A DNA stretch of 64,000 nt from Escherichia coli (GTDB lineage Bacteria > Pseudomonadota > Gammaproteobacteria > Enterobacterales > Enterobacteriaceae), in assembly GCF_003790525.1 (NCBI RefSeq), contig NZ_CP033635.1; one strand, 5' to 3'. Position numbers and translations under genes: made by a program. Every line of letters starts with the position of its first letter. Within the stretch, counting starts at the first letter, position 1. This document shows positions 13,197-31,402 of the stretch, piece after piece. Below the pieces are notes generated by a model. The model was not told the DNA's origin. It saw only the letters and a program-made list of their open reading frames with translations, and ran no database searches.

Positions 13197-13234
13197 TATC
13201 CCACAATATGAGATGGAGTTTATATTGTGGGATA
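13197..13234. promoter_or_regulatory. 13-bp perfect inverted repeat, candidate IclR-type operator
   Basis: TATCCCACAATAT (13197-13209), then a 12-nt spacer, then ATATTGTGGGATA (13222-13234). It lies about 60 nt upstream of the IclR-family start codon. A degenerate third half-site, TTATGTGGAAC, sits near 13258. Confidence 0.55.
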
Positions 13235-13294
13235 TATCACCTTTTCCCCACGTCATTATGTGGAACACTTCAGCAATATCATCAGGAGAAACGT

Positions 13295-14062: not shown

Positions 14063-14085
14063 ACCATGATTAAAGGAAACGACTA

Positions 14086-15709: not shown

Positions 15710-15733
15710 CTGATAAATAAGGATATAAAAGCA

Positions 15734-16708: not shown

Positions 16709-16724
16709 ACCTGAGGTACGGTTG

Positions 16725-17231
16725 ATGAACACAAAACAGTCTGTTGCTCAACTCGCCGTACCGCACCGCAAGCGCCTTTCATCAACGATGGTGGTGGCGC
16801 TGTTACTTTGTGTGGTTGCTGGCGCGGTGATGATTAATGCCGCTGATTTTCCAGCAACTGCCATTGAAACGGATCCCGGTGCAAGTGCCTTCCCTACCTT
16901 CTATGCCTGTGCCCTGATTGTGCTCGCTGTCTTGCTGGTGATACGCGATCTTTTGCAGGCAAAACCAGCCTCTTGCGCCAACGCACAGGAAAAACCGGCA
17001 TTCAGGAAAACGGCAACAGGAATTGCGGCAACCGCGTTTTATATTGTGACGATGAGCTACTGCGGTTATCTCATTACTACTCCTGTTTTCCTCATCGTCA
17101 TTATGACGTTGATGGGCTACAGGCGATGGGTACTCACACCGGGTATTGCGCTGCTGTTAACGGCAATCCTCTGGTTGCTGTTTGTCGAAGCGTTACAGGT
17201 GCCATTGCCTGTCGGCACATTTTTCGAATAA
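16725..17231 (+). CDS. Tripartite tricarboxylate transporter small membrane subunit (TctB family)
   Basis: About 168 aa with 4 predicted TM helices, sitting between the TctC- and TctA-type genes. The ORF track starts at TTG 16722; the adjacent ATG at 16725 is more likely. Confidence 0.75.
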   Translation: MNTKQSVAQLAVPHRKRLSSTMVVALLLCVVAGAVMINAADFPATAIETDPGASAFPTFYACALIVLAVLLVIRDLLQAKPASCANAQEKPAFRKTATGIAATAFYIVTMSYCGYLITTPVFLIVIMTLMGYRRWVLTPGIALLLTAILWLLFVEALQVPLPVGTFFE

Positions 17232-17243
17232 CAGGGGCCAGCA

Positions 17244-18734
17244 ATGTTTGAAAGTGAACTTTTAACTCAGGGTTTTTCGACATTACTCAATAATCCTCAG
17301 GCGCTGCTGTTTGCCACTTTTGGGGTGATGCTGGGTATTGTGATTGGCGCTTTGCCTGGTCTGACAGCGACCATGGGTGTGGCGATTTTGCTGCCTTTCA
17401 CCTACGGCATGGAGCCTGTTTCTGGCTTGTTGATGATTTGCGGCGTCTTTTTTGGTGGCGTCTACGGTGGTTCTATCACCGCAATTTTGCTCAAAATTCC
17501 CGGAACGCCTGCCGCCGCAGCCACCGCTATTGATGGTTATGAGCTGACGAAACAGGGAAAAGCAGGGCTGGCATTGAGTGCCGCCACGTTCTCTTCCTTT
17601 AGTGGCGGAACGCTCAGCATTATCGTGCTGATGTTTCTCTCTCCGGTACTTGCCAGTTGGGCGCTGAAATTTAGTGCCTCGGAGTCCTTCGCCCTGGCAA
17701 CCTTCGGACTGAGCATTATTGCCAGTATTTCCGGTGAGTCACTGATTAAAGGGCTGATTGCCGGGGTTGGCGGATTGCTGATCGCAACGATAGGCCTTGA
17801 TCCAATGGGCGGTTTTCCACGGTTTACAGGTGGATTTGTGGAGCTGATGAATGTGCCATTTATCCCGGTGATGATTGGTTTATTTGCTGCTTCAGAAGCA
17901 TTCCGCTCTATGGAGCAAAACCAGCAAATTCGTCAGGGGGCGAAGGTGGCTATCGGCAGTCTGTTACTGCCCTGGCAAACACTACGCCGCATTGCATTAA
18001 CCATTTTGCGCTCATCAGGATTAGGGGTTTTTATCGGCATGATCCCCGGTGCGGGGGCGGATATTGCAGCTTTTGTTGCCTATAACGAAACTCGTCGTTT
18101 CAGTAAGACACCAGAAAACTTTGGTAAGGGTGAAATTAAAGCTGTGGCCTCCTGTGAGGCAGGCGCGAATGGCTGCACCGGTGGCGCATTGTTACCTATG
18201 CTGACGCTGGGGATCCCTGGCGATGCGGTAACCGCCATCATGCTGGGCGCGTTAACGTTACAGGGAATGCAACCAGGCCCGCTGATGTTTACCGACCACG
18301 GCGATATGGTTTATACACTGTTTGTCGGCATGATCTTCTGTTACTTCATGCTACTAGTTCTTGGACTGCTCTCTTTGAAAGTCATCGGTAATGTGGTGAA
18401 AATTCCCGGCAATATTCTCACACCGATGATCCTCGCACTTTGTGTGGTCGGGACTTATGCGTTGAACAATAGCCTGTTTGATGTTGGCATTATGCTGATT
18501 GCAGGCGTGGTGGGCTATTTCATGCAGAAAGGAGGATATCCGGCATCACCCGTAGTGCTGGCATTGATTATGGGGCCAATGGCGGAAAGTAATTTTCGCC
18601 GTGCGCTGTCGCTTTCTGGTGGGTCACTCGACTTTCTGTATACCCGACCGATAACTCTGGCATTGCTGACTCTGGCAGCCTTTACGCTACTGACGCCAAT
18701 AATCCGCAAAATAATGCGTTTACGGCGTCAATAA
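17244..18734 (+). CDS. Tripartite tricarboxylate transporter large permease (TctA family)
   Basis: 496-aa polytopic membrane protein with the GALPGLTATMGVAILLPFT and GIPGDAVTA motifs typical of TctA. Confidence 0.88.
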   Translation: MFESELLTQGFSTLLNNPQALLFATFGVMLGIVIGALPGLTATMGVAILLPFTYGMEPVSGLLMICGVFFGGVYGGSITAILLKIPGTPAAAATAIDGYELTKQGKAGLALSAATFSSFSGGTLSIIVLMFLSPVLASWALKFSASESFALATFGLSIIASISGESLIKGLIAGVGGLLIATIGLDPMGGFPRFTGGFVELMNVPFIPVMIGLFAASEAFRSMEQNQQIRQGAKVAIGSLLLPWQTLRRIALTILRSSGLGVFIGMIPGAGADIAAFVAYNETRRFSKTPENFGKGEIKAVASCEAGANGCTGGALLPMLTLGIPGDAVTAIMLGALTLQGMQPGPLMFTDHGDMVYTLFVGMIFCYFMLLVLGLLSLKVIGNVVKIPGNILTPMILALCVVGTYALNNSLFDVGIMLIAGVVGYFMQKGGYPASPVVLALIMGPMAESNFRRALSLSGGSLDFLYTRPITLALLTLAAFTLLTPIIRKIMRLRRQ

Positions 18735-19793: not shown

Positions 19794-20603
19794 ATGGCAA
19801 CAACACAACAATCTGGATTTGCACCTGCTGCATCGCCTCTCGCTTCGACCATCGTTCAGACTCCGGACGACGCGATTGTGGCGGGCTTCACCTCTATCCC
19901 TTCACAAGGGGATAACATGCCTGCTTACCATGCCAGACCAAGGCAAAGCGATGGCCCACTGCCAGTGGTCATTGTAGTGCAGGAAATTTTTGGCGTGCAT
20001 GAACATATCCGCGATATTTGTCGCCGTCTGGCGCTGGAGGGGTATCTGGCTATCGCACCTGAACTTTACTTCCGCGAAGGCGATCCGAATGATTTTGCCG
20101 ATATCCCTACGCTGCTTAGCGGTCTGGTAGCAAAAGTGCCTGACTCGCAGGTGCTGGCCGATCTCGATCATGTCGCCAGTTGGGCTTCCCGCAACGGCGG
20201 CGATGTTCATCGTTTAATGATCACCGGATTCTGCTGGGGTGGACGTATCACCTGGCTGTATGCCGCGCATAATCCACAACTGAAAGCAGCGGTGGCATGG
20301 TACGGCAAATTAACCGGCGATAAGACGCTGAATTCACCGAAACAACCTGTTGATATCGCAACCGATCTTAACGCGCCGGTTCTCGGCTTATATGGTGGTC
20401 AGGATAACAGCATTCCGCAAGAGAGTGTGGAAACGATGCGCCAGGCGCTGCGGGCAGCAAACGCGAAAGCAGAGATTATCGTGTACCCGGATGCAGGGCA
20501 TGCGTTCAACGCCGATTATCGTCCGAGCTATCATGCCGAGTCTGCGAAAGACGGCTGGCAGCGAATGTTGGAATGGTTTACACAGTATGGTGTTAAAAAG
20601 TAA
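19794..20603 (+). CDS. dlhH: Dienelactone hydrolase-family protein (carboxymethylenebutenolidase homologue) DlhH/YsgA
   Basis: The ATG at 19794 follows GGAGA (19784-19788). Sequence reads MATTQQSGFAPAASPLAS..., with a nucleophile-elbow-like GFCWGG motif. Matches K-12 YsgA as I recall it. Confidence 0.92.
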   Translation: MATTQQSGFAPAASPLASTIVQTPDDAIVAGFTSIPSQGDNMPAYHARPRQSDGPLPVVIVVQEIFGVHEHIRDICRRLALEGYLAIAPELYFREGDPNDFADIPTLLSGLVAKVPDSQVLADLDHVASWASRNGGDVHRLMITGFCWGGRITWLYAAHNPQLKAAVAWYGKLTGDKTLNSPKQPVDIATDLNAPVLGLYGGQDNSIPQESVETMRQALRAANAKAEIIVYPDAGHAFNADYRPSYHAESAKDGWQRMLEWFTQYGVKK

Positions 20604-20668
20604 CGCCATAGTCGCTAAATCTGATGATTAAGCTCACACAATTTCAACGATTTTTTTAATCTCAAAAC

Positions 20669-20699
20669 CATACAGCATCAAAAAATTTGTTGCTGTATG
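20669..20699. promoter_or_regulatory. 9-bp perfect inverted repeat, candidate operator upstream of the island-2 operon
   Basis: CATACAGCA (20669-20677), 13 nt, TGCTGTATG (20691-20699). The right arm plus its A/T tract (CAAAAATTTGTTGCTGT) recurs as CAAAAATTTCGTTGCTGT at 20748-20765. Confidence 0.4.
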
Positions 20700-20859
20700 C
20701 CACTCTTTGACTCCCTTCACATTCGTCATCACACCACCTGCTGAATGCAAAAATTTCGTTGCTGTGCGGCAAACTTTTTTCCTGTTTTGTGCCGCTTTTC
20801 TCCTGAATACTCGTTCTCAGAACAACTGGATCGTTTAAACATCAGACAGGAGATTTACC

Positions 20860-21528
20860 ATGACGCAATCCATTTTTCAGGCTCAACCCTTTGAATTACC
20901 TTTTGATCCGCGCACAACTGCACTGGTCATGATCGACATGCAGCGTGACTTTGTCGAAGCAGGGGGCTTCGGTGAGGCACTGGGCAATGATGTTTCACTG
21001 GTACGCACGGCTATCGCACCATGTACAGAGGTGCTGGCAGCCGCACGTCAAAAAGGAATTATGGTTATTCATACTCGTGAAGGCCATCGTGCAGACTTAA
21101 GCGACTGCCCGCCAGCCAAACTGACGCGCGGCGGAAAAACCTTTATTGGTGAACCAGGACCGATGGGACGCATTCTGGTCAGAGGTGAAGCAGGTCATGA
21201 CATCATTCCTGAACTGTACCCGGTGGCAGGCGAACCGGTGATTGATAAGCCTGGCAAAGGCGCGTTTTATCAAACCGACTTACATCTGATTTTGCAAAAC
21301 CACGGTATCAAGACGCTGATAGTTTGTGGTGTTACAACCGAAGTTTGCGTAACCACCACCGTGCGCGAAGCAAATGATCGTGGCTATGAATGCATTATCC
21401 CGGAAGATTGTGTCGGCTCCTATTTCCCGGAATTCCAGAAATACGCCCTCGAGATGATCAAAGCACAAGGTGCCATTTTCGGTTGGGTTACTGATTCCAA
21501 AGCCATTATTGCAGGCCTGGAAGGCTAA
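20860..21528 (+). CDS. Isochorismatase-like cysteine amidohydrolase (RutB / biuret-hydrolase / N-carbamoylsarcosine-amidase type)
   Basis: 222 aa. The catalytic triad context is present: ALVMIDMQRDF (Asp), KPGKGAF (Lys), LIVCGVTTEVCV (Cys). The C-terminal GAIFGWVTD resembles the RutB FFGWVSD. AGGAG lies 8 nt upstream. Confidence 0.85.
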   Translation: MTQSIFQAQPFELPFDPRTTALVMIDMQRDFVEAGGFGEALGNDVSLVRTAIAPCTEVLAAARQKGIMVIHTREGHRADLSDCPPAKLTRGGKTFIGEPGPMGRILVRGEAGHDIIPELYPVAGEPVIDKPGKGAFYQTDLHLILQNHGIKTLIVCGVTTEVCVTTTVREANDRGYECIIPEDCVGSYFPEFQKYALEMIKAQGAIFGWVTDSKAIIAGLEG

Positions 21529-21533
21529 CACCG

Positions 21534-22394
21534 ATGGTACAGGTTACGCTTTGCGCATCGTCGTTGGGATATCTTTTCCCGCAGAATGAAACGCAAGATT
21601 TACGTCTACATAGCGCTTTTAAACATGCGGTAAATCTGTATTCAGACGCGGGAACATTCATCACTCTGTTGTGTGCGCAAACGTATCTGAATCTCCCTGA
21701 TGCAGCCAGAGTCTGGCTACCTGAATGTTGGGACTGGCGAAGAGAGATTGCCCATTCAGATCCCATTCAGTTAACCCCAGGCTTACTGCGGACACCTCGA
21801 TTTTGTGTGGCGCTCGAAAACGCAACGCTCTGGCAGTCGCCATTTGTGGGGGGAATGCTGACACTTGAGGCATTCCCTTTGGTTTTCCAGCACTACCCAA
21901 CGATGGCATCGCAACGGCTTTTATTTTGTCTGGAACATAACGTTCAAAGCACATTGCACCTGCCGGATAGTCTCACGCACCAGGGATTAGCGATTATGGA
22001 GCATCCAGATGCGCTGGAACGCCAGGTGCCACAACTGATCGGCTTTGGTAAAGGCTTAACGCCCGATGGAGATGACTATTTGTTGGGCTATCTGGCAGCA
22101 CTCTGGTTATGGCAACTCCCTGCACCACTTGCCGATCATCAATACCGGTTGCAGCAGGTAATTGATCAACATGCGCACAACACCACGGATATCAGTCGTC
22201 ATTATCTGGAGCGTGCGCTTCAGGGACATTTTTCAGAACCGATTTGCCAGTTACTCGCACAACTGGTTGGGAGTGCATCGGCAATGACAATCGCATCCTG
22301 TGCAGAACAGGTCATGCAATTTGGCGCAACGTCAGGAGTAGATTGCCTTGCAGGAATGCTGCATGGCTTTCGAACCCTGAACACCATAAATTGA
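21534..22394 (+). CDS. DUF2877-family protein (YlbF-like)
   Basis: 286 aa with the GKGLTPDGDDYLLGYLAAL and TTDISRHYL motifs I associate with YlbF/DUF2877. It starts 5 nt after the hydrolase stop. Confidence 0.75.
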   Translation: MVQVTLCASSLGYLFPQNETQDLRLHSAFKHAVNLYSDAGTFITLLCAQTYLNLPDAARVWLPECWDWRREIAHSDPIQLTPGLLRTPRFCVALENATLWQSPFVGGMLTLEAFPLVFQHYPTMASQRLLFCLEHNVQSTLHLPDSLTHQGLAIMEHPDALERQVPQLIGFGKGLTPDGDDYLLGYLAALWLWQLPAPLADHQYRLQQVIDQHAHNTTDISRHYLERALQGHFSEPICQLLAQLVGSASAMTIASCAEQVMQFGATSGVDCLAGMLHGFRTLNTIN

Positions 22395-22488
22395 TTTCAA
22401 CCTTTTCTCCCGTAGCCCGTTTATGGGGCTACACGGGGATGCTTTGCCCGAATTTTGCTATCGGGCGGAATGAAACAGGCGTAACAGC

Positions 22489-24048
22489 ATGAAAGTTAAA
22501 TATAAAGTTTTCAGTAATCTTTATCAGGACTCAGTTTCTCTGATGCAGATTTCCGCGCAAATCAGCAAGTTGCCCGGTATTCAACAGGCCTCGGTCGTCA
22601 TGGGAACACCCAATAATCTCGAGCAATTGAGCGATGCGGGTCTGGGTAACGAAATCAACGCCAGTCCCAATGATTTAGTGATTGCAGTCATGGGTGAAGA
22701 AGATATTTGCAATGAAGCACTGGTACTGGCCCAGCAACGTCTGACCAGCAAACCCGATGATGAAACGGATAGTGGCATTAAAACACCGGAAAAGGTCAGC
22801 CTGGAAATGGCACTGGAAGCCGAGCCCGAAGCCAACCTGGCACTCATTTCTGTACCGGGAGACTACGCCGCCGCCGAAGCAATTAAAGCGTTAAACCTCG
22901 GAATGAACGTGATGATGTTCAGCGATAACGTCAGTATCGTGCAGGAAAAATCCATCAAAACGCTTGCCCGAGAACGTCAGCGCATCGTAATGGGACCTGA
23001 CTGTGGAACCGCCATTGTTAACGGCATTCCGTTAGGCTTCGCTAATGTGGTGAAACGCGGAGCAATTGGTGTTATTGGCGCGTCAGGCACCGGGCTACAG
23101 GAAGTGACTTGCCGAATCGACCAGCTCGGAGCGGGTATTTCTCAGGCGTTGGGAACAGGCGGACATGATCTCAGTGAAGAGATTGGTGGAATATCGATGC
23201 TCTTCGCTTTAGATGCGCTGGCGCAAGACGATGAAACTCGCGTGATTGTGCTTATTTCAAAACCGCCTTCACCGATCGTTGCCCGGACTATTCTGGAGCG
23301 TGCCGAGGCTTGTGGAAAACCCGTGGTGGTGAATTTCCTCGGTGCGAATCCGCATGATCTGGCACGTCCCAATATCACCGCGGCCACCACACTTGCCAGC
23401 GCCGCAAATATCGCCGTGGCGTTACTGAATGATCAACCACTTCCGACTATCGAGACCGAAATTTCCTGCGACGATCTCACAATGTTACAAAACGCCTGCC
23501 AGCGCCTGCCAGCCCATCGCCAGGCGATACGCGGTGTTTTCGCCGGAGGAACCTTCTGCTACGAAGCGCAACTTATCTGCCAACAAAAGGGATTCAGCGC
23601 AGCCTCCAATACGCCAGTTGCGGGTAATCGTGCTCTGGCAAATATCTGGCAAAGCGAAGATCACACGTTGATCGATATGGGCGACGATGATTTCACCCGT
23701 GGCAAACCGCATCCAATGATCGACCCGACTCTGCGCAATCAACGTCTGCTCAACGAACTCAACGACTCACACACTGCCGTCGTGTTATTCGACCTGGTAC
23801 TTGGTTATGGCGCTTCCACGACGCCTGCCAGCGAATTACTGGACCAACTTTCACACATCGACATGAATAACGCACCGTTGCTGATTGCGCACGTTTGCGG
23901 AACGGAAGCTGATCCGCAAATACGCAGTCAGCAGATAAGCGCACTACAAAATGCAGGGGTCATCATCGCCAGCAGCAATGCACAGGCGGCGTTATGGGCC
24001 AGCACCGTTGCACAGACTCAGTTGCAGAAAAAGGGGCTAAACGCATGA
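22489..24048 (+). CDS. FdrA-family protein (succinyl-CoA-synthetase-alpha-like, CoA-ligase fold)
   Basis: 519 aa with long collinear similarity to my recollection of E. coli FdrA: QDSVSLMQIS, NVMMFSDNV, MGPDCGT, IGVIGASGTGLQE, GDDDFTRGKPHPMIDPTLRNQ. Confidence 0.88.
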   Translation: MKVKYKVFSNLYQDSVSLMQISAQISKLPGIQQASVVMGTPNNLEQLSDAGLGNEINASPNDLVIAVMGEEDICNEALVLAQQRLTSKPDDETDSGIKTPEKVSLEMALEAEPEANLALISVPGDYAAAEAIKALNLGMNVMMFSDNVSIVQEKSIKTLARERQRIVMGPDCGTAIVNGIPLGFANVVKRGAIGVIGASGTGLQEVTCRIDQLGAGISQALGTGGHDLSEEIGGISMLFALDALAQDDETRVIVLISKPPSPIVARTILERAEACGKPVVVNFLGANPHDLARPNITAATTLASAANIAVALLNDQPLPTIETEISCDDLTMLQNACQRLPAHRQAIRGVFAGGTFCYEAQLICQQKGFSAASNTPVAGNRALANIWQSEDHTLIDMGDDDFTRGKPHPMIDPTLRNQRLLNELNDSHTAVVLFDLVLGYGASTTPASELLDQLSHIDMNNAPLLIAHVCGTEADPQIRSQQISALQNAGVIIASSNAQAALWASTVAQTQLQKKGLNA

Positions 24049-25469
24049 ATACCTTATTTAATCAGCCTTTGAAGGTTGTGAACGCGGGACTACACAGTTT
24101 TGCTGACAATATTCAACATGCCGGGGGAAGCGCAATTGCACTCAACTGGCAGCCACCAGCACAAGGCGATATTGACGCTGGATTGGATCTGGCATCGTTG
24201 CTACGTCATCCCCTGGTAGAAAATGCCAACCAAATCGCCATGACACGTTATCTCGAAGCACAGCCCGTGCTGGTGGATGTCATGCTCGCTAAAGAGGCCA
24301 TTCCAGAAATGGCTGAACAAAAACGTATTTTGCACTCTGGCCCGCCGATTGCCTGGGAAGAGATGTGTGGTCCGGTAAAAGGGGCGATTATTGGTGCCAT
24401 GCTGTACGAAGGTTGGGCCACCAGCCAGCAAGACGCTGAAAACCAAATAAACGCAGGCGAAATCGACCTTGCCCCTTGTCATCATTATCACGCGGTTGGC
24501 CCAATGGCAGGCATCATCAGCCCGTCGATGCCGTTATGGGTGGTAGAAAACAAAACCAACGGCCACCGTACTTTTAGCAATTTCAATGAAGGTCTGGGTA
24601 AGGTTCTCCGTTTTGGCGCCAATAACGATGAAGTTCTCAATCGTCTGGCCTGGATGCGCGATGAACTGGCGCCGGCAATGAAAGCAGCAATCGCACAACA
24701 CGGCGAGCTGGAACTCAAGCCATTAATGGCGCAGGCGCTGCATATGGGGGATGAAGTTCATAACCGCAATGCTGCCGCTACCGGTTTGCTGATTAAGCGC
24801 CTGCTCCCGGCATTGCTGGCCTGCTCTCTTCCACAGGAACATATCCAGCGCGTCGTGGCATTTATCACCGGTAACGATCACTTCTTCCTCAATCTTTCGA
24901 TGGCCGCCTGTAAAGCAATGATGGATGCCGCCGCCAATGTACCGTTCAGTTCAATGGTTACGGTGATGGCGCGTAACGGGGTGAATTTTGGTATTCGGCT
25001 TTCCGGTACTGGCGATCGCTGGTTCCAGGCTCCTGCCAATGCCGTTGAAGGTCTGTTCTTCCCCGGATTTGGCGTCGACGATGCCGCTGCTGACCTGGGT
25101 GATAGCGCAATTACTGAAACCGCAGGTGTGGGTGGCTTCGCGATGGCGTCGTCTCCGGCGATCGTCAAATTTGTGGGAGGCACCCCTGCCGATGCCACCA
25201 ATAACAGCCGTCGGATGCAAGCCGTCACCCTCGGCGGTAACCCCGCATTTACACTTCCAGCCCTCAATTTTGCCCCCACCGCAGCAGGGATTGATGCGCG
25301 TAAAGTGACCGATCGCGGCATTTTACCGGTCATCAATACGGGTATCGCCCACAAACAAGCGGGGGTCGGGCAAATTGGTGCCGGGATCACCACTGCGCCG
25401 ATGGCCTGTTTTGTCGCCGCTGTACGTGCACTGGCGGAGATCGTCGCAAAGGAGAACCATCATGGTTAA
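24045..25469 (+). CDS. DUF1116-family protein (YlbE-like)
   Basis: The ATG at 24045 overlaps the FdrA-like TGA (an ATGA junction), giving about 474 aa starting MNTLFNQPLKVVNAGL... It is the conserved partner of FdrA in fdrA-ylbE-ylbF-ybcF clusters. The ORF-track start at 23994 is probably an over-extension. Confidence 0.78.
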   Translation: MNTLFNQPLKVVNAGLHSFADNIQHAGGSAIALNWQPPAQGDIDAGLDLASLLRHPLVENANQIAMTRYLEAQPVLVDVMLAKEAIPEMAEQKRILHSGPPIAWEEMCGPVKGAIIGAMLYEGWATSQQDAENQINAGEIDLAPCHHYHAVGPMAGIISPSMPLWVVENKTNGHRTFSNFNEGLGKVLRFGANNDEVLNRLAWMRDELAPAMKAAIAQHGELELKPLMAQALHMGDEVHNRNAAATGLLIKRLLPALLACSLPQEHIQRVVAFITGNDHFFLNLSMAACKAMMDAAANVPFSSMVTVMARNGVNFGIRLSGTGDRWFQAPANAVEGLFFPGFGVDDAAADLGDSAITETAGVGGFAMASSPAIVKFVGGTPADATNNSRRMQAVTLGGNPAFTLPALNFAPTAAGIDARKVTDRGILPVINTGIAHKQAGVGQIGAGITTAPMACFVAAVRALAEIVAKENHHG

Positions 25470-26418
25470 GCCACTGGCTGTCGTCGCGGTTGGCGGCAAT
25501 GCGCTCATTCAGGACGAGCAACGCAATAGTATTCCCGATCAATATGTTGCAGTGATGGAAAGCGTGCAGCATATCGTTGATATGGTTGAAGCCGGATGGG
25601 ACCTGGTGCTAACCCACGGTAATGGCCCGCAGGTGGGCTTTATTCTGCGCCGCTCTGAACTCGCCAGTAACGAAGTTTCTCCGGTTCCACTTGATTACGC
25701 CGTGGGTGATACACAAGGTGCAATTGGCTACATGTTCCAGAAAGCACTGCATAACGAATTGGCTCGCCGTGGCATAAACAAACCGGTAATTGCCCTGGTG
25801 ACACAAACGCGAGTCAGCCCACATGACGATGCTTTCGCCAGCCCCAGTAAACCAATTGGCGCGTTTCTCGATGAAGCAACGGCCCAACAACGCCAACAAC
25901 AACTCGGCTGGACGCTGATGGAGGACGCCGGGCGTGGTTGGCGGCGTACAGTTCCCTCTCCTGCCCCACTGGAAGTTATTGAGCACGACACCATCGCTCA
26001 CCTGGTGCGCCAGGGATATCTGGTTATTGCCTGCGGCGGCGGCGGTATTCCGGTGGTGCGAGACGGACAACAACTGAAAGGTGTAGAAGCCGTGATCGAT
26101 AAAGATCTGGCCTCCGCGCTGCTCGCCAGTCAGTTAGGCGCAGATCTGCTGGTGATCCCCACCGGTGTAGAAAAAGTGGCGATTAACTTTGGTACACCAC
26201 AACAACAGTGGCTCGACGCTATCAGCGTTGCCGAAGCGCAAACGCTGTTGCGGGAAGGTCAGTTTGGTGTCGGCAGTATGCAACCCAAAGTGGAAGCCAT
26301 TGTTGATTTCATCAATGCCAGCCAGCAACAAGGCAAACAGGCCAGCGGCCTGATTACTTCACCGCAAACCATAAAAGCAGCCCTGGCGCATCAGAGCGGT
26401 ACATGGATAACCCTTTAA
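25462..26418 (+). CDS. Carbamate kinase
   Basis: The ATG at 25462 follows GGAGA (25451-25455) and overlaps the upstream stop by 8 nt, giving 318 aa. Carries AVVAVGGNAL and THGNGPQVG, the carbamate-kinase signature motifs, plus CGGGGIPV. Confidence 0.92.
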   Translation: MVKPLAVVAVGGNALIQDEQRNSIPDQYVAVMESVQHIVDMVEAGWDLVLTHGNGPQVGFILRRSELASNEVSPVPLDYAVGDTQGAIGYMFQKALHNELARRGINKPVIALVTQTRVSPHDDAFASPSKPIGAFLDEATAQQRQQQLGWTLMEDAGRGWRRTVPSPAPLEVIEHDTIAHLVRQGYLVIACGGGGIPVVRDGQQLKGVEAVIDKDLASALLASQLGADLLVIPTGVEKVAINFGTPQQQWLDAISVAEAQTLLREGQFGVGSMQPKVEAIVDFINASQQQGKQASGLITSPQTIKAALAHQSGTWITL

Positions 26419-26434
26419 TTCTCTGGAGAACACA

Positions 26435-26824
26435 ATGACTACAACGCTTTTAGCCGTTAACGGAACGCTGATGCGCGGCCTGGAACTCAACCCAAATATG
26501 CAAAAAGCGGGCGGTATTTTTGTCCGTGAAGACCGAACTGACGCCCATTACCGGTTGTGGAGTATTAATGATCGCCATCCGGGAATGATTCGCGTGAATG
26601 AAGGAGGAACACACGTCGACGTAGAAATTTGGCAATTACCGCTGGCCAGTTTTGCCGCTCTGTTAATGAGCGAACCCGCTGGGCTGGCAATTGGCAAAAT
26701 CAAACTTGCCGATGGTAGCGAAGTGCTGGGCGTACTGGCAGAAAACTGGCTGACCGAAGGCCAACGGGAAATTACAGAACTGGGTAGCTGGCGCAAATAC
26801 ACCGGGCATTTTCATACTGTGTAA
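26435..26824 (+). CDS. Stand-alone allophanate-hydrolase C-terminal-like / gamma-glutamylcyclotransferase-fold domain protein
   Basis: 129 aa. LAVNGTLMRGLELN...YRLW...PGMIRV..GG..VDVEIWQLP...F..L....P.GLAIGKIKLADGSEVLGVL...ELGSWRKY parallels the C-terminal domain of allophanate hydrolases (from memory). No amidase-signature domain is present. Confidence 0.6.
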   Translation: MTTTLLAVNGTLMRGLELNPNMQKAGGIFVREDRTDAHYRLWSINDRHPGMIRVNEGGTHVDVEIWQLPLASFAALLMSEPAGLAIGKIKLADGSEVLGVLAENWLTEGQREITELGSWRKYTGHFHTV

Positions 26825-26849
26825 CGCGCATTTATAAAGGGAACATACT

Positions 26850-28073
26850 ATGCGTAAAAAAGAAGAGAATCTGAATACGGCATCAGGATTGCGTATTGCC
26901 ATGATTTTGCTGGGTATTGCCGTCACACCTGTGCTGTTGTCATCCTCAAGCCTCGGCAATCAACTTTCCAGCGGCAGTTTAATTAGCGTCGTATTGTTAG
27001 GCGGCGTCATTCTGACCTTACTTTCAGCCATCACCATTAGCGTGGGAGAAAAAGCCCGCCTACCAACGTATGGCATTGTGAAATATTCGTTTGGCGAAAA
27101 AGGGGCCATCGCCATTAACATTTTGATGGCGATAAGTCTGTTCGGCTGGATTGCCGTTACCGCCAATATGTTTGGTCATTCGGTACATGACTTACTGGCT
27201 CAACATGGACTGGAAGTTCCACTGGCACTGTTAGTGGCGGCTGGCTGTGTCATTTTTGTCGCCTCTACGGCATTTGGCTTTGCCGTTCTGGGAAAAATTG
27301 CCCAGGTTGCCGTGCCGGTTATCGCGCTGGTGCTGTGTTACATCCTCTATGTGGCAACCCATACCGAAGTGGCAGTACCAGCGGCGATTGTGGAGATGAA
27401 TACAGGTGTCGCCGTTTCCACCGTTGTTGGCACCATTATTGTGCTGGTTGCCACACTGCCTGATTTCGGTAGTTTTGTGCATAACCGCAAACATGCGCTG
27501 ATTGCCGCAGGCGTGACGTTTCTGGTTGCCTACCCTCTGCTCTACTGGGCGGGTGCAACGCCGAGCGCCATTAGTGGTCAGGGATCTTTACTGGGTGCGA
27601 TGGCGGTATTCGGTGCGGTTCTGCCTGCGGCGCTGTTGTTGATTTTCGCCTGCGTCACCGGTAACGCGGGCAATATGTTCCAGGGCACGCTGGTGGTTTC
27701 CACACTGCTTACCCGCTTTCCCAAATGGCAGATTACCGTGGCGCTGGGTATCCTTTCCGCCATCGTAGGCAGTATGGATATTATGGCGTGGTTTATTCCG
27801 TTTCTGCTGTTCCTGGGTATCGCCACGCCACCCGTTGCCGGAATTTATATCGCTGACTTTTTCTTTTATCGCCGTAATGGCTATCAAGAGTCAGTGTTAG
27901 CCCAGGAGTCACAGATTAAAGTGCTGACATTCGCAGCATGGATCATAGGCGCAGCGGTTGGCTTTATGACCGTAAAAGGCTTATTCACCCTGACGACGAT
28001 CCCTTCGGTAGACTCGATTCTGGTGGCATGTATCGCTTATGCGATTCTCAGTCGGGCAAGTCAACACCGCTAA
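26850..28073 (+). CDS. NCS1-family permease, CodB (cytosine/purine/uracil/allantoin)-like
   Basis: 407 aa with about 12 TM helices. YSFGEKGA...LFGWIAVTANMFG and PPVAGIYIADFFFYRR align with the CodB SFGVKGS...QVGWFGVGVAMF and PPVGGVIIADYLMNRR (from memory). Confidence 0.8.
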   Translation: MRKKEENLNTASGLRIAMILLGIAVTPVLLSSSSLGNQLSSGSLISVVLLGGVILTLLSAITISVGEKARLPTYGIVKYSFGEKGAIAINILMAISLFGWIAVTANMFGHSVHDLLAQHGLEVPLALLVAAGCVIFVASTAFGFAVLGKIAQVAVPVIALVLCYILYVATHTEVAVPAAIVEMNTGVAVSTVVGTIIVLVATLPDFGSFVHNRKHALIAAGVTFLVAYPLLYWAGATPSAISGQGSLLGAMAVFGAVLPAALLLIFACVTGNAGNMFQGTLVVSTLLTRFPKWQITVALGILSAIVGSMDIMAWFIPFLLFLGIATPPVAGIYIADFFFYRRNGYQESVLAQESQIKVLTFAAWIIGAAVGFMTVKGLFTLTTIPSVDSILVACIAYAILSRASQHR

Positions 28074-28101
28074 TTCCTGGGTATACTCAGGCAATGATTA
28101 C

Positions 28102-28125
28102 GGCTGAATCTGGAGAGATTCAGCC
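28102..28125 (+). other. 10-bp perfect stem-loop between the permease and LysR genes
   Basis: GGCTGAATCT (28102-28111), loop GGAG, AGATTCAGCC (28116-28125). Only a weak U-tract (ACTTTACC) follows. It ends 25 nt before the LysR ATG. Confidence 0.5.
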
Positions 28126-28150
28126 ACTTTACCACTGACCAGGAAGCCTT

Positions 28151-29047
28151 ATGTTCATCTCAGACGAAACGCTTCGTGTTATTCATCTGGTCGCCAGACA
28201 CCAGAGCATTACCACCGCAGCCGAGCAGTTAAATAAAGTCCCTTCCGCCATCAGTTACACCATCAAGAAAGCGGAAGAGAGCCTGGGCGTTGAACTGTTC
28301 ATTCGTAAGGGACGCTATATTGAATTATCGCCAGCGGGAAGTTACTTCATCGAACATAGCAAAACTATTCTTGGCGACCTGGAAGCATTAAAGCGCAACA
28401 CAGTGCTGATTCACGATGGTATTGAGCGTGAACTGACAATTGCGGTAAACAATATTATTCCTGGTGATTTGCTGGTGGCATTTATTCGAGATTTTGAACG
28501 GCAATTCACATCAACAACACTGACGGTAGATCTTGAGGTATACAACGGCTGCTGGGATGCGCTGTACAGTAAGCGTGCCGATCTGGTCTACGGTGCTCCT
28601 CATGCAGTGCCAAGCAGTGAAGGCATCATTAGCGAACCGGTCGGACAAATGGAATGGGATTTTGTCGTCAGCCCACTCCACCCACTGGCAGCGAAGCGGC
28701 ATCCATTAGAAAACAGTGAATTGCGTCATTATCCAGCGGTTTGTATCCGCGATACCTCCGTTAACTTCCCCCCGATGCAAGCCTGGTTGTTGGAAGGACA
28801 AAAACCCATTTTTGTTCCTGACTTCGCTACGGCAATCGCCTTAATAGAACAAAACGTCGGTATTGGTTATATTCCACATCATCTGGCATTGCCGTTATTG
28901 AACAGCGGTAAATTGCTTAAAAAGCCAATGCGCGAACATAAACACGCCACCAAGTTATTTCTTGCCGCTCGTTCCGATGGTATGGGCAAAGCCTGTCAGT
29001 GGTGCATAGAATATTTAAGAAATCCGCAATTAATTTTCTGTTCCTGA
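28151..29047 (+). CDS. LysR-family transcriptional regulator
   Basis: 298 aa with an N-terminal LysR HTH (LRVIHLVARHQSITTAAEQLNKVPSAISYTIKKAEESLGVELF) and a C-terminal substrate-binding domain. Confidence 0.9.
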   Translation: MFISDETLRVIHLVARHQSITTAAEQLNKVPSAISYTIKKAEESLGVELFIRKGRYIELSPAGSYFIEHSKTILGDLEALKRNTVLIHDGIERELTIAVNNIIPGDLLVAFIRDFERQFTSTTLTVDLEVYNGCWDALYSKRADLVYGAPHAVPSSEGIISEPVGQMEWDFVVSPLHPLAAKRHPLENSELRHYPAVCIRDTSVNFPPMQAWLLEGQKPIFVPDFATAIALIEQNVGIGYIPHHLALPLLNSGKLLKKPMREHKHATKLFLAARSDGMGKACQWCIEYLRNPQLIFCS

Positions 29048-29076
29048 AGATCCACATCATACCTGGCATACATAGC

Positions 29077-29107
29077 AAAATGGCTTCCGGTGTTGGAAGC
29101 CATTATT
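29077..29107. terminator. Stem-loop terminator between the convergent LysR gene and metE
   Basis: ATGGCTTCC (29080-29088), a 6-nt loop, GGAAGCCAT (29095-29103). It is flanked by AAAA on the left (a U-run for minus-strand metE) and TTATTG on the right. Confidence 0.65.
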
Positions 29108-29140
29108 GTGCTGCAATTTACAATGACTCGTTAATACTCA

Positions 29141-31402
29141 TCATCCCCGACGCAAATTCTGCGCCGCCTGCACCATGTTCGCCAGTGCCGCGCGGGTTTC
29201 TGGCCAGCCGCGCGTTTTCAGGCCACAGTCCGGGTTGACCCACAGACGCTCTGCCGGAATGCGTTTTGCCGCTTTCTTCAGCAAGGCTTCAATCCATTCC
29301 ACGCTCGGTACGTTTGGCGAGTGAATGTCATAGACGCCAGGACCGATTTCATTTGGATAATCAAACTCTTCGAACGACTCCAGCAACTCCATGTCGGAAC
29401 GCGAGGTTTCGATGGTGATGACGTCTGCGTCCAGCGCCGCAATCGAATCCATGATGTCGTTGAACTCGCAGTAACACATGTGAGTGTGGATTTGTGTGTC
29501 ATCTTTCGCCACAGCGGCGTTGATACGGAAAGCCTCCACGCCCCACTGGAGATAGGCATCCCAGTCGCTGCGACGCAGTGGTAAACCTTCGCGCAATGCC
29601 GGTTCGTCAATCTGAATGATGCCAATTCCAGCGGCTTCCAGGTCCGCGACTTCATCACGCAGCGCCAGCGCAATTTGTTTGGCGATGGTTTCACGGCTGA
29701 CATCTTCACGCGGGAACGACCAGCAGAGAATAGTCACCGGGCCGGTCAACATCCCTTTCACCGGTTTATCAGTCAGGGATTGCGCATATTTTGCCCACTC
29801 CACGGTAATCGGTGCCGGGCGGCTAACGTCACCAATAACAATCGGTGGCTTCACGCAGCGGGAACCGTAGCTCTGTACCCAACCGTTTTGCGTAAAGACA
29901 AAGCCATCCAGATGCTCGCCAAAGTATTCCACCATGTCATTACGCTCGGCCTCGCCATGTACCAGCACATCCAGTCCCAAACGTTCCTGCTCAACAATGG
30001 CCTGCTTGATATGTTCCGCAATGCCTGTGCGGTAGTTGTTGGCGTCGAGATTACCCTTTTTGAAATCCAGACGCAGGGTACGAATCTCCGTGGTTTGCGG
30101 GAAAGAACCAATCGTGGTGGTCGGCCATGCTGGGAGTTTAAAACGCGCACGCTGGGCTTCAGCACGCACTTCATAGACATTCGCACGCTGACTGTCCTGA
30201 GCGGTGATCGCCGCCAGACGCTTTTCTACTGCCGGATTATGTACACGAGTAGAGTGACGACGCGCCTGAATCGGAGCGCTCCACGCTGCCAGAGCTGCCG
30301 TATCACCACTGTTCAACGCATCGCGCAGCAATGCCAGTTCATGACATTTTTGCAGGGCGAAGGCAAACCAGCTTTTCACTTCTGCATCAAGACGTGTTTC
30401 CACACTCAGGTCAATGGGACTGTGCAGCAGTGAGCAGGAAGATGCCACCCACAAATCACGTTTGCCGACAATGTCCTTAATTTGCGCATATTTCTCGGTA
30501 AGATCGGCGCGCCAGACGTTACGACCATTGATAAGACCCGCAGACAGCAGCCAGTCAGAAGGCAGACGCTTGTGCAGTTCAGCAACGTCATCTTTACCAT
30601 GTACAAGATCGACATGCAGACCCTGAACAGGCAGCGCAGTAATCGTGTCGAGATTTGGTGTTACGCCTTCAAAATAGGTGGTCAGCAGCAGTTTCACCTG
30701 TCCCTGGAGCGCGTCGTAAGCGGGTTTGTATGCGTCCAGCCACGCCTGCGGCAGTTCCAGTACCAGCGCGGGTTCATCAATCTGTACCCACTCGATGCCG
30801 CGTTTCGCCAGTTCTGCCAGCACTTGCTGATAAACCGGCAGAATGTCGTTCAGCAGGCTCAGGCGATCAAACTGTTCACCTTTCACTTTACCCAGCCACA
30901 GGTAGGTAACTGGCCCCAGCAGCACAGGTTTCACCTTGTGGCCCAGCGCCAGCGCCTCGTCCACTTCCTCCAGCAGCTGCGTCCAGGTCAGTTTGAACTG
31001 TTGGCCTTTAACGAACTCCGGCACCATGTAGTGATAGTTGGTGTTAAACCATTTGGTCATTTCCGCTGCCGCCGCAGGTTCGCCAGTCGGTGCACGTCCA
31101 CGACCAATACGGAACAGGGTGTCGATATCTACCGAACCATCGTTGTTCTGGTGACGCGCCGGAACATTACCCAGCAGCAGACTGGTGGTCAGTACATGAT
31201 CGTACCAGGCAAAATCGCCCACCGGCAGCAGGTCGATACCCGCTTGCTTTTGTTGCTCCCAGTGACGAGCACGTAATTCACGCCCTACCGCCAGCAGTTC
31301 TTCACGCGTGGAGTTCCCCGCCCAATAACTCTCTTGCGCTTTTTTCAGCTCGCGACGCAGGCCAACGCGAGGGAAACCGAGGGTGTGATTAAGAATTGTC
31401 AT
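29141..31402 (-). CDS. metE: Cobalamin-independent methionine synthase MetE
   Basis: 753 aa starting [29 protein letters not shown]..., matching E. coli MetE. Confidence 0.98.

Follow-up and report, generated by a model that had tools for sequence, protein, structure and literature searches.

The eight-gene block between ysgA and metE in Escherichia coli most likely forms a catabolic operon that is complete in itself and serves to break down triuret or an acyl-ureide very similar to it. We hold it to be somewhat probable that a TrtA-type hydrolase feeds a phosphorolytic carbamoyltransferase of the AllFGH type and a carbamate kinase.

Layout and distribution of the ysgA–metE block

The window analyzed here is a stretch of 64,000 nucleotides from the E. 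coli contig NZ_CP033635.1. Its positions 20860–29047 hold, on the plus strand, eight co-directional ORFs between ysgA and metE, exactly at the coordinates given by the first-pass annotation, and the RefSeq annotation of E. coli SMS-3-5 (100% identical over the window) gives the same eight ORFs. The features are as follows.

20604..20859, no strand: upstream region, 256 bp before the operon, where the promoter and regulator sites are presumed to lie
20860..21528, +: gene 1, TrtA-type cysteine amidohydrolase with an isochorismatase-like fold (Pfam Isochorismatase, 163.7 bits)
21534..22394, +: AllH-like (DUF2877) subunit of a three-subunit carbamoyltransferase (Pfam AllH, 95.3 bits)
22489..24048, +: AllF/FdrA-like subunit with a succinyl-CoA-synthetase-alpha-like fold (Pfam CoA_binding and Ligase_CoA)
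24045..25469, +: AllG-like (DUF1116) subunit, its start overlapping the FdrA-like stop (Pfam AllG, 329.8 bits)
25462..26418, +: carbamate kinase (carbamoyl phosphate + ADP -> ATP + carbamate; TIGR00746 arcC, 364.4 bits against a cut-off of 358.25)
26435..26824, +: ORF6, free-standing AH_C-fold protein (Pfam AH_C, 141.6 bits; solved structure PDB 5C5Z)
26850..28073, +: NCS1-family permease, distant from CodB, the presumed substrate importer (Pfam Transp_cyt_pur, 54.4 bits)
28151..29047, +: LysR-type regulator of the PunR/AllS/YahB group (HTH_1 and LysR_substrate domains)
29048..29140, no strand: intergenic region from the LysR gene to the convergent metE, with a 9-bp-stem hairpin at about 29080–29103

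The junctions are as tight as first described: a 5-nt gap separates gene 1 from the DUF2877 gene (21529–21533), the FdrA-like stop and the DUF1116 start share an ATGA (24045–24048), and the DUF1116 and carbamate kinase genes overlap by 8 nt (25462–25469). The motifs quoted at the time are present in the translations. In the upstream region, a sigma-70 and terminator scan gave matches no more numerous than in shuffled sequence, and an Rfam search returned no family at threshold. A perfect 6+6 inverted repeat at 20672–20696 is conserved neither in the plasmid copy nor in other genera, and the inverted-repeat search, with one mismatch allowed, also gave at least one match in 12 of 100 shuffles. 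The downstream hairpin, ATGGCTTCC-GGTGTT-GGAAGCCAT, was read from the sequence and not called by the terminator scan.

The ysgA–metE gap of MG1655 (K-12) measures 39 bp and represents the empty site, and homology to K-12 restarts exactly at the metE stop codon. In the pangenome survey proposed by the first-pass annotation, 1553 genomes out of 5426 complete ones of E. coli carry the block, or about three in ten strains, K-12 not among them; BL21(DE3)/C43 is one of the carriers. The word “island” implies an insertion, which is doubtful here. The order udp-ysgA, cassette, metE-metR recurs in Citrobacter amalonaticus, Buttiauxella and an uncultured member of the Enterobacteriaceae; no integrase, tRNA or flanking repeat was found at the block, and its GC content resembles that of the surroundings. 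The K-12 state may therefore reflect a loss rather than an insertion elsewhere. The same seven or eight genes occur between unrelated flanks in Caballeronia, Avibacterium and Psychrobacter, and the cassette genes are found together in about 20 further species. Allantoin genes do not accompany the unit. These observations support the earlier view that the eight genes behave as a single self-contained unit.

The encoded proteins and their known relatives

Gene 1 is predicted to encode a triuret hydrolase with the products carboxybiuret and NH3. Its closest solved relative is TrtA of Herbaspirillum (6XIX/6XJ4/6XJE, 270.6 bits), a characterized triuret hydrolase (PMC7948467); the BiuH structures score about 234–237 bits, and identity amounts to 58.7% with TrtA and 48.9% with a BiuH-type enzyme. 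Gene 1 has the same residue as TrtA at each of the 15 positions compared for catalysis, binding and specificity (D24, F29, F35, N41, E72, K129, K132, A134, V157, T158, E160, C162, Y187, Q202 and I205), as does every member of its clade. The RutB/BiuH-type label first given to it has to be abandoned: the specificity residues are TrtA-type at six of six positions and BiuH-type at none of six, and the protein fails the equivalog models of both BiuH (279.8 bits against 370) and RutB (111.9 bits against 378). These residues do separate the types, as the four second hydrolases in Nitrospira loci are all BiuH-type at six of six; one of them, tested on the BiuH equivalog, passes (408 against 370), whereas TrtA-type proteins fail. 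Triuret itself (carbonyldiurea) arises when uric acid is oxidized without the help of an enzyme.

Pfam and NCBIfam profile searches agree with the original placement of the next four proteins in the DUF2877, FdrA, DUF1116 and carbamate kinase families. The FdrA-like protein falls into the FdrA subfamily NF004760 (496.4 bits against a cut-off of 433), and the kinase also matches NF009007 (376.7 against 266). The allantoin-linked allFGHK set is not, as had been supposed, the only other such quartet in E. coli: K-12 also carries yahE-yahF-yahG-(yahH)-yahI, with the LysR gene yahB and the amidohydrolase gene yahJ, and the genes described here are a third paralogue set. The DUF2877 protein is 26% identical to YahE and 33% to AllH (partial alignment), the FdrA-like protein 41.7% to YahF and 40.5% to AllF, the DUF1116 protein 46.0% to YahG and 48.5% to AllG, and the kinase 48.3% to YahI and 38.5% to AllK. 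In a neighbor-joining tree, the AllG of the block belongs to a clade apart from both YahG and AllG.

The experimental assignment mentioned in the first-pass annotation does exist: AllFGH is the oxamic transcarbamylase, which interconverts oxalurate and Pi with carbamoyl phosphate and oxamate (PMC11326118), and AllK acts as a carbamate kinase in catabolism (PMC9843812). Like the block, allFGHK combines the three shared families and a carbamate kinase in one operon, with an AllS-type LysR gene nearby, and the presumed chemistry is the same, namely phosphorolysis of the terminal carbamoyl group of an acyl-ureide followed by ATP formation. The two differ in sequence (33–49% identity), in gene order (H-F-G-K in the block, F-G-H-K in the allantoin region), in AllG clade and in context, the block having no allantoin genes and instead a TrtA-type hydrolase, an AH_C protein and its own permease. 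These differences make oxalurate unlikely as its substrate. The uncharacterized yahB-yahJ cluster of K-12 shares the order DUF2877, FdrA, DUF1116, carbamate kinase and a LysR gene (26–48% identity), but has an ankyrin protein and the YahJ amidohydrolase in place of the TrtA-type hydrolase and the AH_C protein.

ORF6 is 100% identical over 129 residues to PDB 5C5Z, which we take to be c4763 of the uropathogenic strain CFT073; the crystal structure of c4763 has reportedly been published, in a paper cited by PMC7558591. That structure is the sole experimental datum for proteins of the locus, and from the directly observed gene content, family membership, residue identities and co-occurrence, we infer all substrates, reactions and mechanism. 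The AH_C domain of allophanate hydrolase handles the N-carboxy product of the preceding amidase step. ORF6 belongs to the same fold family as that domain (4GYR and 4ISS; PMC5770610), as first noted, yet it is free-standing, lacks an amidase domain and carries Leu12 at the site of a His that is invariant in ten confirmed and three solved allophanate hydrolases (His492 of the K. lactis enzyme, 5I8I numbering). The free-standing AH_C proteins all lack this His and have their own invariant polar set (N9, T11, R14, D46, H48 and E80). Because the His is absent, ORF6 cannot simply be read as having allophanate-hydrolase-C activity.

The permease is an NCS1 family member, as first annotated, but is only distantly related to CodB (146 bits on the NCBIfam cytosine permease model against a cut-off of 326). 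In other taxa, the cassette has instead a 529-aa permease without a Pfam match or a Bmp-type ABC system. The regulator, recognized as LysR-type from the outset, scores 286.7 bits on the PunR model (cut-off 345) and 214.3 bits on the AllS model, and is 34% identical to YahB and likewise to AllS. By these scores it belongs to the purine-linked PunR/AllS group, which we count in favor of triuret.

The locus has been noticed before as GR29 (PMC12928451), and a search of the literature found no published functional assignment, substrate or pathway for it. The ORFs do belong to the families first named, the block is not a relocated allantoin region, and the searchable literature holds no prior characterization.

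Gene neighborhoods and alternative readings

We scanned one genome per species with AllG as the query and kept the 36 loci in which AllG reached 57% identity or more and neither flank was shorter than 6 kb. A TrtA-type hydrolase gene lies near the AllG gene in 29 of these 36 loci, which are not phylogenetically independent, and is missing nearby in the other seven; it is found in one of nine loci of the yah-like group. This association outside allantoin clusters, the neighborhood comparison proposed earlier, spans Gamma-, Beta- and Alphaproteobacteria, Actinomycetes, Nitrospira, Chloroflexota and others, with three transporter types. The alternative neighbors comprise cyanuric acid hydrolase, BiuH and allophanate hydrolase, each of which belongs to the funnel of triuret, biuret and cyanuric acid breakdown. 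Relatives of the yah cluster in other phyla lie beside cyclase, molybdenum hydroxylase, NCS2 permease and PucR-type genes. Cyanuric acid hydrolase (NF052395, 535–555 bits against 360) stands beside AllF/AllG in four loci, two of which (L059 and L072) had no gene-1-type hydrolase within the locus. Eight loci, each viewed over about 20 kb, combine a TrtA-type gene, allophanate hydrolase (TIGR02713, 793–821 bits against 511), AllF/AllG and carbamate kinase without BiuH, which leaves the removal of one carbamoyl group, carboxybiuret to allophanate, as the only step uncovered; BiuH, AtzF or urease could lie elsewhere in those genomes.

Known pathways share parts of this logic. The Herbaspirillum sp. 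BH-1 route (TrtA, TrtB, BiuH and AtzF; PMC7948467) has the same predicted entry enzyme and first intermediate, carboxybiuret, but is purely hydrolytic, whereas the block lacks TrtB, BiuH and AtzF and would continue by ATP-yielding phosphorolysis. Pseudomonas sp. ADP (AtzD, AtzEG, AtzH and AtzF; PMC7948467) likewise handles carboxybiuret before it decays to biuret, but through deamination by the amidase AtzEG, and none of its proteins is encoded in the block. Carboxybiuret is the product of both TrtA and cyanuric acid hydrolase. The trtA/biuH clusters of comammox Nitrospira and ammonia-oxidizing archaea (PMC12625717), represented in our scan by L031, L044 and L047, join a TrtA-type gene to AllFGH-type genes and carbamate kinase; unlike the E. 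coli cassette, a minimal form without BiuH and AtzF, they include both of these and an ABC transporter.

ORF6 might instead decarboxylate carboxybiuret and so take the place of TrtB without being its homolog, an alternative that we regard as unlikely. The entry step would be unchanged, but the transferase would have to use biuret (biuret + Pi -> carbamoyl phosphate + urea), with urea excreted by the urease-negative E. coli, as oxamate is in the allantoin pathway. A TrtA and AH_C pair would repeat the logic of allophanate hydrolase, whose N- and C-domain reactions run sequentially (PMC5770610), and the AH_C gene lies directly beside the TrtA-type gene in eight of the 30 loci having both. Moreover, the Nitrospira clusters are reported without trtB (PMC12625717), yet two have a free-standing AH_C gene next to trtA; the absence of AH_C from some loci fits a helper of a reaction that is also spontaneous, and E. 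coli already wastes half of the oxalurate nitrogen as oxamate (PMC11326118). Against this, the His of real AH_C domains is missing from all the free-standing proteins, the allophanate hydrolase of the eight BiuH-less loci would have no substrate, biuret lacks the carboxylate common to oxalurate and carboxybiuret, and losing two of four nitrogens as urea would be poorer value for a cassette that spreads from host to host.

Slightly less probable still is a substrate other than triuret (biuret, a pyrimidine-derived ureide or an unknown acyl-urea), on which the hydrolase and then the transferase would act in series. Gene 1 could differ from TrtA in substrate, since it lies in a sister clade at the identity given above; the permease is of the nucleobase/cytosine type, the analogues tried on TrtA were few (biuret, 1-nitrobiuret, formylurea and acetylurea; PMC7948467), and GR29 of strain BEN2908 has been proposed, on account of its resemblance to RutB and CodB, to break down pyrimidines (PMC12928451). 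However, the 15 functional positions are those of TrtA throughout the clade, and mutation at most of the tested specificity positions lowered TrtA activity (PMC7948467). Both the RutB and CodB models stay far below their cut-offs, the cassette has no RutA-like or other ring-opening enzyme, and the alternative neighbors all come from the funnel described above. Among the candidates first listed, biuret- or allophanate-like compounds fit the triuret reading, whereas hydantoin, pyrimidine and ureidoacrylate found no support.

Finally, a triuret hydrolase and a second oxalurate-specific transcarbamylase with its kinase could simply stand side by side, both serving purine breakdown, as the nitrifier clusters were read by their authors (two neighboring pathways, triuret and oxalurate; PMC12625717), given that oxalurate is the only biochemically known substrate of the enzyme family (PMC11326118) and that urate or allantoin is the origin of both compounds; this is improbable in view of the single permease and regulator, the translational coupling, the association across several phyla and transporter types, the dead end at biuret for a triuret hydrolase without BiuH, the allFGHK set already present in K-12 at only 33–49% identity, and the absence of any oxalurate-making enzyme traveling with the cassette.

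Proposed triuret pathway

Import followed by amide hydrolysis, carbamoyl phosphate and ATP, the route first outlined, remains the best reading. The NCS1 permease would take up triuret or a near acyl-ureide, and the TrtA-type hydrolase would cut off the amide at one end (triuret + H2O -> carboxybiuret + NH3). Carboxybiuret (H2N-CO-NH-CO-NH-COO-) has one NH more than oxalurate (H2N-CO-NH-CO-COO-). The half-life of carboxybiuret, which decays to biuret, is about 20 min (PMC7948467), and BiuH is not encoded in the block, so an enzyme that captures carboxybiuret would avoid a dead end. We tentatively propose, as a possible course, that the AllH/AllF/AllG-type enzyme phosphorolyzes the terminal carbamoyl group (carboxybiuret + Pi -> carbamoyl phosphate + allophanate). 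A second round (allophanate + Pi -> carbamoyl phosphate + carbamate) would be pure conjecture. Carbamate kinase would then form ATP from carbamoyl phosphate and ADP, and the carbamate would decay to NH3 and CO2. The AH_C-fold protein may hold or act on an unstable N-carboxy intermediate, and the LysR protein would activate the operon on sensing the substrate or one of the intermediates. If this is true, E. coli strains with the block would obtain ammonia, CO2 and ATP from triuret via a new relative of the oxalurate-cleaving enzyme, itself a recent discovery.

Gene content and setting of the ysgA–metE block

Eight co-directional open reading frames, ORF1–ORF8, lie between ysgA, which ends at 20603, and the convergent metE, which ends at 29141. 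Their coordinates and starts agree with the RefSeq annotation of strain SMS-3-5 (NC_010498.1), which is 100% identical to the window, and the junctions reported in the first-pass annotation—a 5-nt gap at 21529–21533, an ATGA overlap at 24045–24048, and an 8-nt overlap at 25462–25469—are exact.

Table. Genes of the block (20860–29047, plus strand) and their profile matches
ORF1: isochorismatase-like cysteine hydrolase; Pfam Isochorismatase, 163.7 bits
ORF2: AllH/DUF2877; 95.3 bits
ORF3: FdrA/AllF; NF004760, 496 bits (cut-off 433)
ORF4: AllG/DUF1116; 329.8 bits
ORF5: carbamate kinase; TIGR00746 (arcC equivalog), 364.4 bits (cut-off 358.25)
ORF6: AH_C (allophanate hydrolase C-domain family) domain alone; 141.6 bits
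ORF7: NCS1 permease; cytosine-permease model, 146 bits (cut-off 326)
ORF8: LysR regulator; nearest models PunR (286.7 bits) and AllS (214.3 bits)

The earlier placement of ORF2–ORF4 in the AllH, AllF, and AllG families is borne out by Pfam and NCBIfam matches that all exceed the curated cut-offs. Both features that define the AllFGH-type carbamoyltransferase family, three subunits encoded together and an operonic carbamate kinase, are found here. ORF2–ORF4 are three separate subunits with adjacent genes, two of which overlap their neighbours, and ORF5, a predicted catabolic carbamate kinase in the same operon, passes the arcC equivalog model and overlaps ORF4 by 8 nt. As the first-pass annotation supposed, this family has recently received an experimental assignment: work on the purified AllFGH identified it as the oxamic transcarbamylase in 2024 (PMC11326118), after AllK had proved to be a catabolic carbamate kinase in 2022 (PMC9843812).

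The block is not the second such module of E. coli, as had been supposed, since K-12 already holds two, allFGHK and yahE-yahF-yahG-yahH-yahI, the latter in a cluster with yahB (LysR), yahD (ankyrin), and yahJ (amidohydrolase). The identities to the All and Yah sets are 40.5% and 41.7% for the AllF-like ORF3, 48.5% and 46.0% for the AllG-like ORF4, and 38.5% and 48.3% for the kinase ORF5. The island proteins are thus about equally distant from both sets and therefore form a third paralogous set, with the gene order of the yah cluster. Orthology with K-12 AllFGH, the oxamic transcarbamylase proper, which interconverts oxalurate plus phosphate and carbamoyl phosphate plus oxamate, was rejected because the identity (33–49%) roughly equals that to the Yah paralogues and the proteins fall in a separate tree clade. 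The block does not follow allantoin genes (allECD), and no all or gcl genes occur within it or the related cassettes.

In K-12 MG1655, metE and ysgA are 39 bp apart; homology with K-12 is lost within the final few ysgA codons and is back at the metE stop codon. A mobile-element origin of the chromosomal block was considered and rejected. The hallmarks of a horizontally acquired island (an integrase, a tRNA target, flanking repeats, or atypical composition) were not seen at the block, the GC content of which (44–59% in 500-bp windows) resembles that of the flanks, and cross-genus synteny was found instead: the order udp-ysgA, cassette, metE-metR also occurs in Citrobacter amalonaticus, Buttiauxella, and one uncultured member of the Enterobacteriaceae. 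Because an integrase, a tRNA, and repeats are absent, the locus looks old, and the empty state of K-12 may represent a loss.

Sigma-70 promoter and terminator scans gave matches no more frequent than in shuffled sequence, and an Rfam scan of 20300–29400 gave two sub-threshold matches only. A perfect inverted repeat, ACAGCA-N13-TGCTGT at 20672–20696, was rejected as an operator: neither the plasmid copy nor other genera have it, and comparison with shuffles showed no significance. At the edges of the block, the C-terminus of YsgA reads FTQYGVKK in SMS-3-5 and FKQYGGKKSL in K-12 (window 20540–20603 compared with K-12), and the K-12 intergenic hairpin ACCGGGTGGTATTACCACCCGGT is missing from the window, which has a different hairpin at about 29080–29103. 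A second K-12-absent block, at 13208–18734, separates rmuC and udp, which we take to be adjacent genes in K-12; it encodes an IclR regulator, a 2-dehydro-3-deoxygalactonokinase, a KDPGal aldolase, and a tripartite tricarboxylate transporter (Bug-family binding protein, TctB, and TctA).

The hydrolase ORF1 and the AH_C protein ORF6

ORF1 had been described as a RutB/BiuH-type hydrolase, a label that falls below both curated cut-offs: the protein scores 279.8 bits against the BiuH model NF050097 (cut-off 370) and 111.9 bits against the RutB model TIGR03614 (cut-off 377.95), and it has none of the six BiuH-type residues. The solved structures that match it best are 6XIX, 6XJ4, and 6XJE (270.6 bits, as compared to about 234–237 for the BiuH structures and about 105 for RutB), all of them from the triuret hydrolase TrtA of Herbaspirillum sp. 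BH-1 (PMC7948467). TrtA uses the triad D24, K129, and C162 with the contact residues F29, E72, K132, and Q202, and it differs from BiuH at six positions, with F35, N41, A134, E160, Y187, and I205 in place of Y, Y, S, D, T, and V (PMC7948467). In the alignment to 6XIX, ORF1 retains the triad and the V157-T158 cis-peptide pair, is identical to TrtA at all four contact residues, and is TrtA-type at all six discriminating positions. Its sequence identity is 58.7% with TrtA, as against 48.9% with a BiuH-type protein. In a neighbour-joining tree without support values, the ORF1 clade is sister to Herbaspirillum TrtA and the Nitrospira TrtA-type group, with the BiuH-type proteins outside both. By these residues and scores, ORF1 is TrtA-type and a predicted triuret hydrolase.

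Is ORF6 an allophanate hydrolase? The protein is 100% identical to PDB 5C5Z, which we take to be c4763 of the uropathogenic E. coli (UPEC) strain CFT073. A structure paper on c4763 is cited in PMC7558591. ORF6 has 129 residues, covering only positions 440–562 of the 563-position allophanate hydrolase model (99.2 bits; cut-off 511), and no amidase domain is encoded in the block. The two domains of allophanate hydrolase, N and C, act in sequence (PMC5770610). We rejected ORF6 as a full enzyme of the AtzF or DUR1,2 type, because it has no fused N-terminal amidase-signature domain.

We aligned 14 free-standing AH_C proteins, including ORF6, against ten C domains taken from confirmed allophanate hydrolases. 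Both groups share the core V8, G10, Y39, R40, P49, E64, G87, G94, W119, R120, and Y122. Position 12 is Leu in all 14 free-standing proteins, and His in 10/10 full-length enzymes and in three PDB enzymes. This His of the V-x-G-A-H motif, which the Granulibacter and K. lactis structures also have, corresponds to His492 in K. lactis by 5I8I numbering and was reportedly proposed by Fan et al. in 2013 as the catalytic residue of the C domain. The free-standing group has invariant polar residues of its own (N9, T11, R14, D46, H48, and E80). The earlier description of an allophanate-hydrolase-C-like domain thus holds as to the family, but the motif His of the catalytic C domain is replaced by Leu. 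Given this replacement and the distinct polar set, homology alone does not justify calling ORF6 an N-carboxycarbamate decarboxylase.

We also rejected ORF6 as a homologue of TrtB, the carboxybiuret decarboxylase. TrtB aligns with AtzH and HpxZ (supplementary Fig. S11 of PMC12625717), and ORF6 belongs to AH_C, a different family. A role as a functional, non-homologous analogue of TrtB, which ORF6 might conceivably play, is kept only as a rival. If carboxybiuret is the substrate of the neighbouring carbamoyltransferase, then the AH_C domain would have been re-purposed here as a free-standing protein and would have acquired a new active site. The role of ORF6 is the weakest part of our model.

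The cassette across species and within E. coli

Homologues of ORF1 with 79–88% identity occur in Enterobacteriaceae, Edwardsiella, Silvimonas, Caballeronia, Dyella, Photobacterium, Vibrio, Shewanella, Avibacterium, Psychrobacter, and others. In Caballeronia, Avibacterium, and Psychrobacter, these same seven or eight genes stay together amid unrelated flanks, and a further enzyme was never seen within the compact form. The cassette is a unit.

We scanned one genome per species with an AllG-type alignment and kept the best 80 loci (51–85% identity to ORF4). Their ORFs, with about 20 kb seen per gene and rough calls at high GC, were annotated against reference proteins, Pfam, and NCBIfam. A neighbour-joining tree of AllG without support values, with K-12 AllG as the outgroup, separates a large ORF4 clade, to which almost every locus with an AllG of 57% identity or more belongs, from a yah-like group. 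The neighbours were counted at the 36 ORF4-clade loci with at least 6 kb on each side. This count replaces an initial AH_C count of 34/41, discarded because it mixed free-standing with full-length enzymes and included loci fetched by the hydrolase.

Table. Neighbours of AllG in the 36 ORF4-clade loci (counts ignore shared ancestry)
TrtA-type hydrolase and free-standing AH_C: 19
TrtA-type hydrolase and full-length allophanate hydrolase: 5
TrtA-type and BiuH-type hydrolases, with AH_C or allophanate hydrolase: 3
TrtA-type hydrolase only: 2
Cyanuric acid hydrolase without TrtA-type (one also with allophanate hydrolase): 2
Allophanate hydrolase only: 1
None of these: 4

A TrtA-type hydrolase lies beside AllG in 29 of the 36 ORF4-clade loci versus one of nine yah-like loci, uncorrected for shared ancestry. 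Nearly all of the hydrolases adjoining the ORF4 clade are TrtA-type at six of six positions, with five of six in four loci. BiuH-type hydrolases (YYSDTV) were found only as second copies in Nitrospira loci; the one scored reaches 408.3 bits and passes the BiuH equivalog, confirming that the residue test works.

The same enzymes are accompanied by three transport systems: NCS1, a 529-aa permease without a Pfam match, and a Bmp-type ABC system. The second, a polytopic membrane protein of about 529 aa with 11 hydrophobic segments (L041, 3409–4998 in the locus's own numbering), has homologues in 20 loci (e.g., L024, L029, L035, L048, L053, and L063). It replaces the NCS1 permease in many cassettes, has no Pfam or NCBIfam match, and may form a transporter family, so far undescribed, that handles triuret- or biuret-like compounds. 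Another membrane protein, of 418–444 aa with 8–10 hydrophobic segments, 35–53% identity between loci, and no Pfam match, lies directly beside cyanuric acid hydrolase (L059 6985–8319, L072 1384–2640, and L088 4842–6116) and may be a cyanuric acid transporter.

The yah-like group has cyclase, molybdenum hydroxylase, NCS2 permease, and PucR-type genes as neighbours. Its AllF/AllG genes occur in Bacillota, Spirochaetota, and Thermotogota (L074, L082–L084, L086, and L090; L076, L083, L086, L087, and L089), next to Pfam "Cyclase" proteins, molybdenum hydroxylase-like proteins, NCS2 permeases, and PucR-like regulators. These neighbours hint that the yahEFG family serves another purine-derived substrate.

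Within E. coli, where the first-pass annotation had left the pangenome distribution to be mapped, the complete block is present in 1553 of 5426 complete genomes. Laboratory B strains carry it, including C43(DE3), and K-12 does not. It corresponds to GR29 of the avian strain BEN2908, for which only a similarity-based guess of pyrimidine breakdown was offered (PMC12928451). A copy 94–95% identical to the chromosomal block (about 94.6%) resides on 82 PLSDB plasmids, 78 from E. coli and four from Klebsiella, all 82 predicted to be conjugative. Among 15 records sampled evenly down the ranking, the source was chicken, turkey, or hen in 10; the sampled poultry records include APEC IMT5155 and NC_007675, and the plasmids are large. 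Birds excrete uric acid, and the poultry link fits a urate-derived substrate, as a correlation only. On the IncF plasmid pMTY17668_IncF (NZ_CP134354.1, L002), the cassette adjoins eitABCD and colicin-type genes, and about 7 kb downstream lies a yah-like module (L002 25171–28183; LysR, ankyrin-repeat, AllH-family, and FdrA genes), so that one plasmid holds two paralogous carbamoyltransferase sets.

Among the matches listed, most E. coli genomes align to the block only as far as query position 8431, which lies about 106 bp short of metE. The metE–ysgA region spans 16 kb in BEN2908 (PMC12928451). Many strains therefore seem to carry additional genes in the interval from the LysR gene to metE. Nearby in CFT073, c4756–c4759, annotated as PTS genes, and c4760–c4780 are UPEC-associated metabolic gene sets (PMC2831201).

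Carboxybiuret as a candidate carbamoyl donor

What could the carbamoyltransferase act on? We infer each function proposed here from homology, residues, and gene neighbourhood. TrtA produces carboxybiuret. This compound has a half-life of about 20 min, decaying to biuret, and two enzymatic fates are known for it, the TrtB decarboxylase and the AtzEG deaminase (PMC7948467); its other known source is cyanuric acid hydrolase. The latter enzyme adjoins AllF/AllG in four loci (535–555 bits; cut-off 360), two of which, L059 and L072, have no ORF1-type cysteine hydrolase. In addition, eight loci (L048, L053, L057, L060, L063, L066, L067, and L077) encode a TrtA-type hydrolase, AllF/AllG, a carbamate kinase, and an allophanate hydrolase passing its equivalog (793–821 bits; cut-off 511), and no BiuH-type hydrolase was found in the approximately 20 kb seen of each. 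Since TrtA supplies carboxybiuret and allophanate hydrolase uses allophanate, the uncovered step is the loss of one carbamoyl group. AllFGH removes just such a group from oxalurate, and oxalurate and carboxybiuret are one NH apart.

The cyanuric acid hydrolase neighbours, the gap-filling loci, and the chemical similarity together led us to propose carboxybiuret phosphorolysis. The ORF2–ORF4 enzyme would convert carboxybiuret and phosphate into carbamoyl phosphate and allophanate, and the kinase would then form ATP. The E. coli form of the cassette has no allophanate hydrolase; conjecturally, allophanate could be cleaved again by the same enzyme to carbamoyl phosphate and carbamate, be processed with the aid of ORF6, or decay to urea. 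Our tentative proposal, which we rate as somewhat short of probable, is that the AllFGH-type enzymes of the ORF4 clade are carboxybiuret (perhaps allophanate) carbamoyltransferases, providing a third, phosphorolytic fate beside TrtB and AtzEG.

The location of trtA/biuH beside allFGHK in comammox Nitrospira and archaea has been interpreted as two adjacent pathways (PMC12625717). Apart from this co-location, full-text searches, which left most subscription journals out of reach and may thus have missed reports, returned no published substrate for the locus and no link of triuret, biuret, or carboxybiuret to any carbamoyltransferase. The protein families and the AllFGH-plus-kinase logic are known; the predicted substrate, the partners, and the physiological role would be new.

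If the carboxybiuret proposal is true, the cassette would funnel nitrogen from triuret and cyanuric acid into ATP through substrate-level phosphorylation, without BiuH, AtzF, or urease, as a new energy-conserving branch in triuret, biuret, and cyanuric acid breakdown. These compounds originate in the oxidation of urate, in urea fertiliser, and in triazine herbicides. Triuret has also been reported from human urine (PMC7948467). Some 29% of E. coli, among them the B/BL21 lineage, UPEC CFT073, and the hosts of poultry ColV-type plasmids, would be equipped to use a uric acid oxidation product. An accessory operon common in extraintestinal and avian E. coli would then have an explanation, and with it ORF6, a protein with a structure solved without a function. 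Moreover, an enzyme family first assigned only in 2024 would gain a second substrate, with a hint as to the function of yahEFG.
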